From a virus (Duplodnaviria > Heunggongvirae > Uroviricota > Caudoviricetes), in IMG/VR virus record IMGVR_UViG_3300029498_000044: a DNA stretch of 13,541 nucleotides; one strand, written 5' to 3'. Under the pieces are notes generated by a model. The model saw nothing but the letters and a program-made list of their open reading frames with translations, searched no databases and was not told where the DNA came from. Below, piece after piece: positions 2,579-12,396 of the stretch; positions within the stretch are counted from its first letter, which is position 1; every line of letters begins with the position of its first letter. Position numbers and translations under genes: made by a program.

Positions 2579-2752
2579 TTATTCCCGAACTACCTTGAAA
2601 CCGAGTCTTTCCAAGTATTCAATGAATGCCTCAACAGATAACACTACATGATCATCAGGAATTAACGCTGTGTAGGTAATACCCCCATTCTCAACGCGCA
2701 CAGCATAGAGGCCATCTTCACTAAAAATTTCACGTAATTCTTCGATTTTCAT
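2579..2752 (-). CDS. Hypothetical small protein (57 aa)
   Basis: ATG at 2752 preceded by GGAAGGA 8 nt upstream. Track ORF 2579..2800 trimmed to this start. Confidence 0.45.
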   Translation of the reverse strand: MKIEELREIFSEDGLYAVRVENGGITYTALIPDDHVVLSVEAFIEYLERLGFKVVRE

Positions 2753-2884
2753 CAACAGAATCCTTCCAGATAAATAGCACTCCCCCTGTTCGGGGTCCAT
2801 CCCTCTTCTCCCTGCGCGCTACTTAAGTATTTTTGATTCTATTCTGGCACCGTCCAAAACTTCAAACACGTTGAAAATAAAAAC

Positions 2885-2905
2885 AAAAAACCCGCCGAAG
2901 CGGGT
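2885..2905 (-). terminator. Rho-independent terminator ending the two-gene cassette
   Basis: Minus strand: stem ACCCGC/GCGGGT with TTCG loop, then a T-run. Lies immediately after the stop at 2910. Shares an identical 20-nt core with 4721-4740. Confidence 0.65.
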
Positions 2906-2909
2906 ATAC

Positions 2910-4016
2910 TCAAACAATCTGGAAAATATTTCTTGGATTTGTAATAGGTCTGTTGATGGAGAACAACTCACGAATTAAATCTTGGCTCAAGCCAGTTTTC
3001 ATAAGAATTCTTAGCCAGGTTGCATCATCCAGCATTTCAATCGCCTCGGCCAGCATGCCGGGTTCTTCAGGGCGCAAAAGTTCATCACCAGGTTCAACTC
3101 TCGTATACCCTCTGGAATTAAGATGCATATAGCCAGTTCTTGCCTGTTCCTGGGTCAATAAGCCTAATGCGCTGGCTCGATAAATACACATTTTAAGGCT
3201 GATTTTCCATCTAAGTTTAAATTCAACCAGAGCATTCCAGTCGAATTGCTTACCTCGTATTCGTGGAAATTCTTTAATGAAAGATAACCTGGGAACTAAT
3301 AAGGCGCTCGAAAAGTGATCGGCTTGTGATTCCGTAAGTTTATCACCTGTCGTTATGCCCTCATGCATTACTAAATGCCCTAATTCATGACCTAAATCAG
3401 AGCGAAATCTACATATGCTTTTTTTAACATTGTTCCTGATGATAACAGGCCTGTTATTGTGAACAGTAAAAGCATCAACACGATCATCGACTCCCGTAAC
3501 ATGCGCAACGATTACCCCTAAACTCTCCGCCAATTTAACCATTGATGATATAGGGCCAAGACCTAAATTCCAGGCACGGCGACAATCTTCTGCCACTCGC
3601 TCAATATCATTCGGAGTAAGTAATTCAGCCCCTGGGTGCTCCGGTATGTTAACGTCAGGAAATTCGATTTCACCTTCAACAGCAGAAATTATAATATTAA
3701 GAATCTCAGCCCTGGCCAATACACTATTAGTCAGCGTTTGAGTCCTGGACTTCTTACTCCGAAAATGGCAGACATCACTTTCCAGAGCGTATTTTCGTTC
3801 AGTAAAAAGAAAACTGGACTTAATCATAAGCGCTGAAGATATTAACTCAAGACATTGCTCCGATGGCCTGCACCCCTTCTCCAGTTTGCTAACGAATTGC
3901 TTTGTCTTGCCAATTTTTTCGGCTAACTCTTCACAAGAAAGCCCAACAGCCATTCTCGCTAGTTTGAGCTTATCACCCCGATACTCAGTGAAGTTATTCA
4001 CCTGATGTTCCATCAC
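2910..4016 (-). CDS. HTH_XRE DNA-binding domain fused to ImmA/IrrE-family (COG2856) Zn-metallopeptidase
   Basis: N-terminal XRE helix-turn-helix (about residues 12-68, LARMAVGLSCEELAEKIGKTKQFVSKLEKG). HEXXH motif H210-E-L-G-H214 at nt 3375-3389. First codon is GTG at 4016 or ATG at 4013. Overlaps the upstream gene by about 20 nt. Confidence 0.85.
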   Translation of the reverse strand: MMEHQVNNFTEYRGDKLKLARMAVGLSCEELAEKIGKTKQFVSKLEKGCRPSEQCLELISSALMIKSSFLFTERKYALESDVCHFRSKKSRTQTLTNSVLARAEILNIIISAVEGEIEFPDVNIPEHPGAELLTPNDIERVAEDCRRAWNLGLGPISSMVKLAESLGVIVAHVTGVDDRVDAFTVHNNRPVIIRNNVKKSICRFRSDLGHELGHLVMHEGITTGDKLTESQADHFSSALLVPRLSFIKEFPRIRGKQFDWNALVEFKLRWKISLKMCIYRASALGLLTQEQARTGYMHLNSRGYTRVEPGDELLRPEEPGMLAEAIEMLDDATWLRILMKTGLSQDLIRELFSINRPITNPRNIFQIV

Positions 4017-4644
4017 TGCTCACATCCAAATCTTTATCCTTCGTACGCCGACGAAGAGGCACCTTATTAATCTCCGCTTCGTCAGGGAGTGTGTTATAAT
4101 CAAGAGGCATAAGCGGCATCGATGCTGTAGATTGATGAGAAACTATACTAATCTGAGCACCATAAGTATTAAATCCAACAAGAGCTACCTCCCAACGAGG
4201 CAGTGTGGACTCTAATTCACCATCGCCCTCTTCGGATAAAAAAGGCTCAGCTATGACTCGCCATGTAATATCTTGCTCAGCCTCAACATCACCAAACAAT
4301 GAGAGCTGCTCATACTCTACTTTATTTCGACGCAGACGATGTTTCTTTTTGGGGTTATTAATGCAATCTTTGGTAAATTGTAGCGGAACTTTATTTAAAG
4401 CAACTACATAGTCCAACCCCTTGGAAATCATCTCAAGGCCAGGAATTGCATCTTCATTTTGAATAAGATGATTTCTGACCCAATCATAAGCCCTTACACC
4501 TTCAGACCAGTTGCTGTCTAATGCGTGCTTATGATAGTACAGCTGCTCAAGTACGTTAGCGATCTCCGCCAACAAGTGGCGAACATAGTTTTCAGCAAGA
4601 TAAGGTTGAAATTCCCAACAAGGAGCTAACTGATTTTCATTCAT
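3994..4644 (-). CDS. Hypothetical 216-aa protein, operon partner of the HTH-peptidase; candidate effector or toxin
   Basis: Long ORF with no motif I recognise. Contains a basic patch KKKHRLRRNK. Its 3' end overlaps the downstream peptidase gene. Weak SD. Confidence 0.7.
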   Translation of the reverse strand: MNENQLAPCWEFQPYLAENYVRHLLAEIANVLEQLYYHKHALDSNWSEGVRAYDWVRNHLIQNEDAIPGLEMISKGLDYVVALNKVPLQFTKDCINNPKKKHRLRRNKVEYEQLSLFGDVEAEQDITWRVIAEPFLSEEGDGELESTLPRWEVALVGFNTYGAQISIVSHQSTASMPLMPLDYNTLPDEAEINKVPLRRRTKDKDLDVSSDGTSGE

Positions 4645-4679
4645 TTCAAGTTTCGCTTTTTTTAGAATTCGTAAACCAC

Positions 4680-4708
4680 ATATTTTCGCATTTTTCTATT
4701 TTTGTCAA
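4680..4708 (-). promoter_or_regulatory. Candidate cassette-specific promoter
   Basis: Perfect minus-strand -35 TTGACA (4703-4708). The -10 is weak (AAATAT or AAAATA at 16-18 nt spacing). Sits between the upstream terminator and the cassette start. Confidence 0.3.
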
Positions 4709-4720
4709 CCAGACTAATGC

Positions 4721-4740
4721 AAAAACCCGCCGAAGCGGGT
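4721..4740 (-). terminator. Rho-independent terminator at the 3' end of the hok transcript
   Basis: Same ACCCGC-TTCG-GCGGGT hairpin plus T-run as 2885-2905, about 70 nt past the hok stop. Confidence 0.6.
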
Positions 4741-4809
4741 TAAGTGCGGGTGCGTTGAGGATGCCTGGCACATCAGAGGTGGCGGGAGATTACTCCCCCG
4801 CCGGGTCTC

Positions 4810-4965
4810 TTACTCCTCAGGTTCGTAAGCTGTGAAGACAGCGACCTCCGTCTGGCCGGTTCGGATTCGTACCTCGCAGAGGTCTTTCCTCGTTACCAGT
4901 GCCGTCACAATGACGGTTAAACAGATGACGATCAGGGCGATTAGCATCGCCTTTTGCTGCTTCAT
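4810..4965 (-). CDS. hokD: Hok-family type I toxin (small membrane peptide, 51 aa)
   Basis: MKQQKAMLIALIVICLTVIVTALVTRKDLCEVRIRTGQTEVAVFTAYEPEE is a canonical Hok/Gef sequence and matches my memory of HokD/RelF. Track ORF 4810..5022 carries a 19-codon upstream extension at the mok-like position. Confidence 0.85.
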   Translation of the reverse strand: MKQQKAMLIALIVICLTVIVTALVTRKDLCEVRIRTGQTEVAVFTAYEPEE

Positions 4966-5169
4966 AGCCTGCTTCTCCTTGCCTTTCGGCACGTAAGAGG
5001 CTAACCTACGTGTGTAGAGCATAGATATGGCCTCAGATTAATGTTAAGCGTCTTGCCGGACGCGTAATGTTAACTGGGGCTTTTCTCTATCTGCCTTTTG
5101 GTGTTCATGCCTGAGACAGATAGCCTCAAGCACCCGCTGCAATTCTACTTAACTCTCCTTTTCCCGCAA
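4966..5169 (-). promoter_or_regulatory. hok promoter and long 5' leader with mok-like start and Sok target
   Basis: Minus-strand TTGCGG (5164-5169), 16-nt spacer, TAGAAT (5142-5147). Leader contains GCTTGAGGCTATCTG...CAGATAG complementary boxes. In-frame upstream ATG at 5022. Confidence 0.5.
5014..5090 (+). ncRNA. Candidate Sok-like antisense RNA (approximate coordinates)
   Basis: Plus-strand TTGCCT (4979-4984), 17-nt spacer, TAACCT (5002-5007) would start a transcript antisense to the mok start and SD. The 3' end is not resolved. Confidence 0.3.
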
Positions 5170-5775: not shown

Positions 5776-6039
5776 TTAACCCGCAGTGCTTTCAACTGAT
5801 GAGGGGAACAAAATCTTTTCATCAAACCCTGCATTCATATCATGGACAGCAACACACCAATCCATTGACGAACGATTATCAAGAGCCTCCATGATTTCAT
5901 CCATGCGGCGCAGGTCATACAGGTAAATGCTTTTATCGCCAATGGTGTAAAAACCAATTTTTTTCGGTGATGGACAGCGATCAAGAACGTCCTGTAATTC
6001 GTTCAACCATGCCTGTTCTTTTTTTGTCAAAGTTGCCAT
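5776..6039 (-). CDS. Hypothetical prophage protein (87 aa)
   Basis: Start taken at internal ATG 6039 with AAGGAAA SD, just after the stop of the upstream gene. Track ORF extends to 6129. Confidence 0.55.
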   Translation of the reverse strand: MATLTKKEQAWLNELQDVLDRCPSPKKIGFYTIGDKSIYLYDLRRMDEIMEALDNRSSMDWCVAVHDMNAGFDEKILFPSSVESTAG

Positions 6040-11142: not shown

Positions 11143-11568
11143 TCAATGCACAGCCACAATATTTCCTGCAGGGCCACCACGATTCATCTGGTTGAAACCA
11201 GCGATCGCCACTGCGACAAAATCATCAGCGTCTCTCACCAGTCGTTCCCGCGTCTCCACCAGCTCCCGAAAATAAGCTGAACTGTGGCTGCGCATTCGGG
11301 CCACCAGCAGAGGCGGCATTGCTTTTTCGATCGCTGGTAACAACGCCTGAATTTTTTTAACCGCATCAGGAGTGTCTTTCTCCACCCAGCGGAAAATTTT
11401 CTGGGTATTGCGAGCCAGGGCTTCCGGATGGCTGTCGTCATATAATTCCGGGAACGTCATACCAAGCTCAAAATAAGCCCGGGTTATTTCAGCTGCCGGA
11501 ACTTTTTCACCGTCCGGATGCGCCCAGGCATTCATCGCCATGCGGATGTGCTCATGCCTGATTTTCAT
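11143..11568 (-). CDS. ydaT: YdaT-like regulator (cII functional analog of Rac-type prophages)
   Basis: 141 aa, MKIRHEHI...IVAVH. N- and C-terminal signature and length match Rac YdaT from memory. Sits between the cro-like and O-like genes. Confidence 0.75.
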   Translation of the reverse strand: MKIRHEHIRMAMNAWAHPDGEKVPAAEITRAYFELGMTFPELYDDSHPEALARNTQKIFRWVEKDTPDAVKKIQALLPAIEKAMPPLLVARMRSHSSAYFRELVETRERLVRDADDFVAVAIAGFNQMNRGGPAGNIVAVH

Positions 11569-11827
11569 GAATCAACTCCGATGCATTTGGTGTGTTAGCC
11601 TTGAATCCAACAGGTAAGCCGTCGGTTGGATTCGGGTAAATATCAGGCCGGAGTTCATGAGGTGTAACCTCGAAATTCGTTACTTCAGCAACACGTAATG
11701 CTTTTTCAGGGCTGAATCTTTCATAGCCCCCCAGCACTCGACTTACATGCACCTGAGATAAACCCGTTAGCTTCCCAAACTGTAGCTGGGTGATATGTTT
11801 CTCTTTTAAATAGTCTCTTAAGTTCAT
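11552..11827 (-). CDS. Cro/YdaS-like HTH regulator
   Basis: HTH segment ITQLQFGKLTGLSQVHVSRVL, followed by an ELRPDIYP motif. ATG at 11827 with GAAGG SD (track start at 11833 is TTG). Divergent from the repressor. Confidence 0.75.
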   Translation of the reverse strand: MNLRDYLKEKHITQLQFGKLTGLSQVHVSRVLGGYERFSPEKALRVAEVTNFEVTPHELRPDIYPNPTDGLPVGFKANTPNASELIHENQA

Positions 11828-11857
11828 AGCCAACCTTCTACGTTATGCCTCGAGCAA

Positions 11858-11886
11858 ATATTAGCCCCGCTAATTTTAAAGATCAA
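11858..11886 (-). promoter_or_regulatory. pR-like early-right promoter with overlapping operator-like TAATATT motif
   Basis: Minus-strand TTGATC (11881-11886), 17-nt spacer, TAATAT (11858-11863). The -10 lies inside GCTAATATTTGC. Confidence 0.45.
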
Positions 11887-11934
11887 TAGCCAGACTATCT
11901 TTGATAATATTGGTAAAACAAATAAACTCTATGT

Positions 11935-12396
11935 ATGAAAAAAACACGCGAAGTGATTGCAACTCCAGAAGCGAGCAAGAATTTAAAAGCCGCATGGAAT
12001 GCAAGAAAAAAAGAGCTGAAGCTGACTCAAGAGCTGGCGGCTGAGTTGTTGGGATTCGAATCTCAAGGCACCGTTAGCCAGTATCTGAACGGCAAGATAC
12101 CGGTAAATACCGACGCTGCGCTAAAATTTGCGGCTCTGTTAAAGGTAAAACCAGAGGACATTCGAGAAGACCTTAAAGACTTAATGAATTATGTAAGATC
12201 ATCAGATACTTATGATGATAACTTTTCAGGCAAAGGATGGAGGCTGGTCAATGAAGAACAGGCAGAGTTACTTAACCTCTTCGAGATTCTACCTGCGTCA
12301 GAAAAAGCCAAACTCCTTAACCAGCTACGTGGACTAAACAAGCTCTACGAGGAAGCCTTCGAGAACATGCTGGCACTAAAGAAACGTAACCAGTAG
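11935..12396 (+). CDS. Prophage repressor, DicA/RacR-like (HTH_XRE, no S24 peptidase domain)
   Basis: 153 aa. N-terminal XRE HTH (LTQELAAELLGFESQGTVSQYLNG). C-terminal ELLNLFEILPASEKAKL resembles the DicA C-terminus. No LexA-type Ser/Lys autocleavage domain. Confidence 0.8.
   Translation: MKKTREVIATPEASKNLKAAWNARKKELKLTQELAAELLGFESQGTVSQYLNGKIPVNTDAALKFAALLKVKPEDIREDLKDLMNYVRSSDTYDDNFSGKGWRLVNEEQAELLNLFEILPASEKAKLLNQLRGLNKLYEEAFENMLALKKRNQ

Follow-up and report, generated by a model that had tools for sequence, protein, structure and literature searches.

What is the two-gene cassette that separates hokD from rem in the prophage sequence IMGVR_UViG_3300029498_000044, how does it come to lie there, and what might its products do? 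The sequence is a stretch of 13,541 nucleotides (nt), called the window here, and the cassette occupies positions 2885-4741. An earlier note made from the letters alone had taken the pair for an independently expressed accessory module of toxin-antitoxin (TA) or defence type. Our analysis supports that view and gives the pair a name: the cassette is very probably a RosmerTA toxin-antitoxin anti-phage module, a toxin gene (rmrT) followed by an antitoxin gene (rmrA), carried as an optional insert ('moron') by a lambdoid (Qin/Rac-like) prophage. The parts of this assignment differ in strength. Membership of RosmerTA and TA behaviour are very probable, while an anti-phage role of this particular cassette, argued by analogy with tested relatives, is moderately favoured.

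The classification in itself matters little, since standard defence-finder tools would label the locus RosmerTA and the cassette occurs in about 4% of complete Escherichia coli genomes. The locus is of greater use as a base-precise example of the insertion of a RosmerTA cassette into a prophage, at a hok terminator. In addition, a conserved motif of sliding-clamp type in this toxin offers a cheap and directly testable hypothesis on how it acts.

Identity and control of the rmrT-rmrA pair

Both products match curated PADLOC models of the system. Residues 7-209 of the 216-amino-acid (aa) product of the first gene align with positions 5-195 of the 198-position RmrT model PDLC03929 (E 4.6e-25), and the product of the second aligns with the RmrA model PDLC03943 (E 6.2e-105, residues 12-351), with 13 more RmrA models also matched. 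The corresponding PHROG families are 5786 (unknown function; RmrT, E 8e-85) and 2439 (RmrA). Pfam places an HTH_3 helix-turn-helix (HTH) domain at residues 17-63 of RmrA and a Peptidase_M78/IrrE domain at residues 177-282, with an intact HELGH at residues 209-213 of the 367-aa form (H210/E211/H214 in 368-aa numbering); the PADLOC capP model matches the protease domain alone (E 1.6e-14). End to end, RmrA also aligns with NCBIfam NF052239, 'spr1629 family repressor/antitoxin', at 155.9 bits; this is far under the cut-off of 335, so RmrA is a relative and not an equivalog. The features of the locus are as follows.

3994-4644, minus strand: rmrT, predicted toxin gene, 216 aa (open reading frame; RefSeq WP_001004956.1, 'hypothetical protein'; PADLOC, PHROG)
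2910-4013, minus strand: rmrA, predicted antitoxin gene, 367 aa (RefSeq WP_000401168.1; alternative GTG start at 4016; PADLOC)
3828-3968, minus strand: XRE-type HTH of RmrA (Pfam HTH_3, E 5e-07; PDB matches SinR and 434 repressor)
3171-3488, minus strand: ImmA/IrrE (M78) zinc-peptidase domain of RmrA (Pfam Peptidase_M78, E 6e-11; HELGH codons 3375-3389)
4294-4308, minus strand: QLSLF codons, RmrT residues 113-117, candidate beta-clamp-binding motif (sequence, consensus; putative function)
4651-4711, minus strand: promoter and candidate operator region (-35 TTGACA, two 28-nt direct repeats)
4721-4741, minus strand: upstream terminator hairpin, the native hokD terminator, with repeat copy 1 at 4721-4740 (terminator scan, exact repeat)
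2886-2905, minus strand: downstream terminator hairpin, repeat copy 2, 4 nt past the rmrA stop codon (terminator scan)
4810-5135, minus strand: hokD/mok/sok type I toxin-antitoxin locus, outside the cassette and marking the insertion site (Pfam HOK_GEF; Rfam sok RF01794, 117 bits; RefSeq hokD)

The interval 2885-4741 holds two minus-strand open reading frames, 3994-4644 (216 aa) and 2910-4016 (368 aa from a GTG). RefSeq starts the second gene at the ATG at 4013, giving 2910-4013 and 367 aa; the overlap with rmrT is 20 nt from this start or 23 nt from the GTG one codon earlier. No RNA gene came up within the cassette in Rfam and tRNA scans.

The toxin assignment was extended to a family of 62 aligned members. 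All 62 match PDLC03929 (best E 3e-72), and neither the 216-aa protein nor any of these relatives falls in a Pfam or NCBIfam family. A sequence search of the PDB with RmrT returned nothing at E <= 10. An AlphaFold2 (AF2) model built from the 62 sequences reached a predicted local distance difference test score (pLDDT) of 84.5 and supersedes an earlier one from 13 close sequences (pLDDT 62); queried with the RmrT model, Foldseek gave no viral structure at E <= 0.001.

The earlier note fares well against these results. It had read the second product as an XRE HTH fused to a HEXXH metallopeptidase, which the HTH_3 and Peptidase_M78 matches and the intact HELGH bear out, and had called the 216-aa partner devoid of recognisable motifs, which is true of Pfam and NCBIfam, though PADLOC does match it to RmrT. 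Its mention of 'Rosmerta-type' pairs was exactly right, and the PADLOC profile search that it advised identifies RosmerTA. The 216-aa protein matched no structural, replication or regulatory phage family. The structural check that it proposed led to the AF2 model, with which the search of viral structures came back empty.

RosmerTA was described by Millman et al. 2022, who found that a Delta-rmrA form could not be transformed and that the native operon defends (10.1101/2022.05.11.491447). We took the RmrT and RmrA sequences of their E. coli OLC-716 system from Millman Table S2. There, as here, the toxin gene precedes that of the antitoxin, a fusion of an XRE HTH with an M78 zinc peptidase bearing HEXXH; the alignment of RmrA with its verified OLC-716 counterpart spans 301 residues at 29% identity (E 2e-35). 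The toxins differ: OLC-716 RmrT maps to PDLC03935/03932, and the RmrT of the window belongs to PDLC03929, a sequence-unrelated subfamily. By these comparisons the system and family are already known, and the RmrT subfamily is distinct from that of the verified OLC-716 system. One antitoxin type is reported to pair with many toxins, in agreement with the divergence of RmrT seen here, and the RmrTA of Gordonia phage Kita defends against some BASEL phages (PMC10440598).

Further pairs of the same build speak for TA behaviour. In Vibrio mimicus, Vmi480 is lethal in E. coli and is neutralised by Vmi470, an HTH and zinc-peptidase protein (PMC4671572). The E. coli E101 prophage pair E101_02645/02644 makes clpP essential, a trait that moves to K-12 with the pair (10.1101/2020.05.25.114553), and among Pectobacteriaceae clpX is essential only in three RosmerTA-carrying strains (PMC13566846). 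Like our cassette, the Vmi480/Vmi470 and E101 pairs place a toxin of about 200 aa 5' of an antitoxin of about 365 aa with HTH and zinc-peptidase domains. Vmi480, at 198 aa, equals the PDLC03929 profile in length, and the RmrT family is rich in Vibrio members; for the toxins of both pairs, membership of the family is a lead. In E. coli, a variant whose RmrA is 58% identical to ours has a toxin that lacks the T46 residue reported for the E101 toxin. By analogy with these studied relatives, RmrT would be toxic, RmrA would neutralise it together with ClpX/ClpP, and the pair would give some protection from phages.

The region 5' of rmrT suggests how the pair could be controlled. A repeat finder detected two 28-nt direct repeats at 4684-4711 and 4651-4678 (GGTTnACnAA...GCGAAA), spaced by 33 nt, the first of which includes a TTGACA -35 element on the minus strand (4708-4703). 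Conservation of the 70 nt 5' of rmrT extends from E. coli to Serratia and, in part, to Xenorhabdus, and the repeats recur at the identical 33-nt spacing 5' of the Serratia homologue (positions 5935-5994 of locus L003). They are likely binding sites of the RmrA HTH and would form an autorepression operator. The -35 element named in the earlier note as the cassette's own is present, though the -10 paired with it is weak.

Some observations weigh against the assignment. At a 17-nt spacer the -10 reads AAATAT (3/6), and because of this the promoter was not called by a consensus scan. Homology of RmrT to OLC-716 RmrT was considered and rejected (BLASTP E 7, hhalign probability below 1%). A literature search found no experimental test, for toxicity or for defence, of the PDLC03929 RmrT subfamily, and no mention of either protein accession.

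Insertion at the hokD terminator

The cassette differs in composition from its surroundings, with 41.5% GC against 51.6% in the left flank, 47.0% in the right flank and 47.8% in the whole window. An exact 20-nt repeat, AAAAACCCGCCGAAGCGGGT, stands at 2886-2905 and at 4721-4740, and a terminator-like hairpin was called at both copies. Upstream lies hokD (4810-4965), and downstream lie rem (2579-2800) and ydfU/DUF968 (1196-2245); the order hokD, rem, ydfU matches that of the K-12 Qin prophage, relB-relE-hokD-rem-ydfU. Two overlapping minus-strand genes, richer in AT than their flanks, bracketed by identical terminator hairpins and set between hok and ydfU as in the relBE-hokD region of Qin, were all part of the earlier description, and each point stands.

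Comparison with prophages and phages that lack the cassette defines its ends. In phage mEp460, window positions 2685-2905 and 4720-5154 align to adjacent stretches that overlap by 21 nt, and this overlap is the single terminator copy that joins hok to rem. In K-12 Qin, too, hokD adjoins rem with one terminator copy and no cassette. Since the flanks are contiguous in mEp460 with one terminator, the cassette is, by this alignment, a 1,835-bp insertion exactly at the hokD terminator, and its placement there accounts for a terminator at both ends.

The cassette interior was found in 237 of 5,426 complete E. coli genomes, in 224 of them at >=99% identity, and 232 of the 237 share the hok-rem context. 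Matches to at least a part of the 2,541-bp query are far more widespread (4,723 genomes) and in most cases cover just the hok region. With this frequency, and with empty sites in existence, the pair is not a core component of related prophages. Deposited phage genomes, searched at DNA level and with tblastn, yielded no match to the cassette or to the toxin; on the sequences searched, the cassette is known solely from prophages in bacterial genomes. One copy has itself been interrupted: in E. coli FDAARGOS_1249 (NZ_CP069459.1 1256741-1259621) an otherwise identical cassette is split by an IS5-family transposase.

Among species-representative genomes, close relatives occur only in Escherichia albertii and one Xenorhabdus. 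The pair also occupies other slots. Serratia prophages carry rmrT-rmrA between Q and the holin gene, and in Xenorhabdus the pair lies between replication genes and DUF1367/Q. A diverged variant in E. coli CP157162.1 (4364-6542 of locus L007), with a toxin 41% and an antitoxin 58% identical to those of the window, sits 5' of hok, in the position of relBE in K-12 Qin, and has one terminator copy after hok; its toxin retains QLSLF. In Serratia, Xenorhabdus and this second E. coli variant alike, rmrT lies directly 5' of rmrA and overlaps it, so the check for co-occurrence that had been suggested gives a linked pair in each. Genes that travel together through varied slots and genera show the pattern of a mobile two-gene module. 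The RmrT homologues P0013 (Salmonella Sanjuan), P0014 and P0016 (Plesiomonas) diverge fully past about residue 93-155 in a frameshift-like manner and are possibly decayed toxin genes.

TA and defence cargo seems to be exchanged around hok, on both sides of the gene: K-12 has relBE in this neighbourhood, and other genomes place RosmerTA variants on one side or the other. The same neighbourhood bears on the strongest competing explanation, namely that the cassette is mainly an addiction module that stabilises the prophage by post-segregational killing, a second one beside hok/sok, with no real anti-phage role. The cassette does lie directly beside hok/sok, relBE holds a neighbouring position in K-12 Qin, and RosmerTA relatives act as classic TA pairs, among them RipAB, which has been linked to competence and not to defence. 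Against this, two RosmerTA systems (OLC-716 and Kita) did protect against phages, and the cassette moves among optional-insert prophage slots in several genera, as defence cargo does. We regard addiction without defence as unlikely, and the two roles are not mutually exclusive.

A candidate clamp-binding motif in RmrT

If the cassette is a RosmerTA module, the question that follows is what its toxin attacks. Residues 113-117 of RmrT read QLSLF, which fits the consensus beta-clamp-binding motif QL(S/D)LF. Such motifs are defined as Q-phi-x-[LM]-[FL] or Q-phi-x-[LM]-x-[FL], with QLxLF giving the tightest binders; negative charge past the motif favours binding, and replacement of Gln by Asn costs little affinity (PMC11139829). 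QLSLF is the motif of PolC, for which submicromolar affinity for E. coli DnaN has been reported (PMC12309361). In RmrT the motif is set between PKKKHRLRRNK, a conserved basic patch on its N-terminal side, and an acidic stretch, GDVEAEQD, on its C-terminal side.

Across the 62 family members, the aligned columns hold E110 in 58, Q113 in 50, L114 in 28 (with M in 6 more), S115 in 29, L116 in 44 (with F in 7 and M in 5) and F117 in 22 (with L in 10); one member reads QLSLPL, a hexapeptide of the Hda type. When only the 53 members below 50% identity are counted, E110 is conserved in 92% and is the top non-initiator position, Q113 in 77% (rank 12) and L116 in 66% (rank 21). The canonical clamp pattern occurs at the aligned site in 34 of the 62, with 3 matches elsewhere in all sequences, and 3.1 matches would be expected from composition in the whole family. 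Since the members are related to one another, this enrichment is not to be read as a probability. The other RmrT subfamily has a comparable element: OLC-716 RmrT reads QLKLDL at 143-148, the form seen in enterics, Q[LMI]x[LFI][DGN][LF] is found in 14 of 22 relatives, and the shorter Vibrio/Photobacterium relatives of OLC-716 type have NLDLF at that site, with 12 residues fewer just before it.

Work on Streptococcus pneumoniae supplies the functional half of the argument. There the Rosmer toxin RipA (Spr1630) has DnaN as an interaction partner, with suppressors located in the hydrophobic pocket of DnaN; it is RipA that makes clpX essential, and without ClpX the antitoxin RipB is inactive (PMC12795458). 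RipAB (Spr1630/Spr1629) shares the antitoxin architecture of our cassette, and the action of RipA on DnaN fits the QLSLF found here; the pneumococcal pair differs from the cassette in its chromosomal location, outside a prophage, and in its tie to competence. Apart from the RipA paper, our literature search found no report that ties a RosmerTA toxin to the sliding clamp, and the word 'motif' is absent from that paper (PMC12795458). As far as this search shows, the clamp-motif lead for RmrT is new.

A similar logic is known outside RosmerTA, and it lends the proposal a precedent in kind. Caulobacter crescentus SocAB, a type VI TA system attributed to Aakre et al. 2013, reportedly combines a clamp-binding toxin with ClpXP-dependent restraint, which makes ClpXP essential. 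The likeness lies in the proposed logic of a clamp-motif toxin held in check through ClpXP; SocA, unlike RmrA, is not an HTH-peptidase protein. SocAB and the Rosmer pairs have no sequence or structural homology (PMC12795458).

Taken with the RipA result, the conserved QLSLF leads us to infer a block of replication by clamp binding. In the lysogen, RmrA bound at the pair of conserved 28-nt direct repeats overlapping the -35 element would repress the operon, and RmrA together with host ClpXP, as in the relatives, would keep RmrT low or inactive. Infection by another phage could break this control, after which freed RmrT would bind the beta sliding clamp DnaN through QLSLF; the blocked clamp would stall the host replisome, along with phages dependent on it, and lead to abortive infection or growth arrest. 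That binding of DnaN through QLSLF is the toxic mechanism of RmrT is a tentative proposal, drawn from the motif and from RipA, to which we give a minority share of our belief. The broader version is held with the same reserve: the PDLC03929 subfamily (Enterobacterales, Vibrio, Aeromonas) may consist of beta-sliding-clamp poisons that plug the DnaN cleft, and RosmerTA systems may have come to clamp targeting repeatedly and by convergence, as an effector strategy selective against phages that use the host replisome. If true, clamp binding would connect RosmerTA of E. coli prophages with the finding on RipA and DnaN, and also with the reliance on ClpXP observed in several species.

The structure and the relatives both call for caution. 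In the AF2 model the motif belongs to a 34-residue excursion that separates strand 3 from strand 4, and residues 108-115 are modelled as helix (pLDDT about 73-88). E110, Q113 and L116/F117 are spaced such that they could also line one side of a helix, so that their conservation could be structural, catalytic or a matter of RmrA binding. E110, the best conserved of these residues, lies outside the clamp motif and could be catalytic or contact RmrA. Other RmrT proteins act differently, that of Kita by depolarising membranes (PMC10440598), and the action of this toxin is therefore not transferable from its relatives.

A catalytic role for E110 is the core of another explanation, in which RmrT would be a nuclease of restriction-endonuclease-like fold (PD-(D/E)XK type) that kills by cutting DNA, with E110, D43 and R129 as catalytic residues in place of a clamp peptide. 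The catalytic D...(D/E)xK signature was sought in strands 2 and 3, where the family consensus reads FVFxI and VPxRF, and no conserved acidic-x-Lys was found. We regard a nuclease as unlikely, somewhat more so than the addiction reading.

The immunity region and other prophage features

The protease domain of RmrA invites comparison with element-borne regulators. ImmR/ImmA of ICEBs1, IrrE/DdrO and CapH/CapP all associate an M78/ImmA-IrrE fold with an XRE HTH; those pairs control an element or the operon of a cyclic-oligonucleotide-based anti-phage signalling system (CBASS) through an HTH repressor and a protease made as two proteins, whereas RmrA unites both domains in one protein and has a toxin as its partner. 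The neighbours of the cassette are hokD and rem, with no CBASS or integrase gene adjacent to it.

On this model RmrA could be an ImmA-like anti-repressor protease that governs induction of the prophage by cleaving its repressor, with the 216-aa protein as a regulatory accessory. HTH repressors are indeed substrates of ImmA/IrrE proteases in ICEBs1 and in CBASS (CapH/CapP), RmrA matches the PADLOC capP model, and the repressor candidate of this prophage (11935-12396) has an HTH domain only. Set against these points, the immunity region lies 8 kb from the cassette, the cassette is missing from most related prophages and the unit travels to unrelated slots and genera, the HTH is already fused to the protease, and the partner matches a toxin model. 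We consider an anti-repressor role very improbable. Least probable of all, and already refuted at the level of sequence classification, is that the defence system is previously undescribed, as the earlier note had proposed: RefSeq calls the toxin a 'hypothetical protein', no Pfam or NCBIfam family covers it and the accessions go unmentioned in the literature searched, but both proteins match 2023 PADLOC RosmerTA models at full length, and all 62 relatives (62/62) match the same RmrT model.

The immunity region itself spans 11143-12396. Its 153-aa repressor candidate (11935-12396, plus strand) is an HTH-only protein without a LexA-type peptidase domain and is divergent from a YdaS-like gene (11552-11833) and a YdaT-like gene (11143-11568).

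Downstream of the cassette, rem and its surroundings (2480-2800) are mosaic: the 5' part of the gene and the region upstream of it are 90% identical to mEp460 rem, and the similarity ends at about 2685. At the place equivalent to rem, the RefSeq annotation of strain NCCP15648 has no more than a pseudogene fragment.

At the left end of the window, a lipocalin gene (Blc-like; Pfam Lipocalin_2, E 7e-43) at 121-645 on the plus strand adjoins a gene for a 130-aa Q antiterminator at 801-1193 on the minus strand. The lipocalin gene is probably further prophage cargo, and a 'lipocalin family protein' is annotated at the same place in related genomes.

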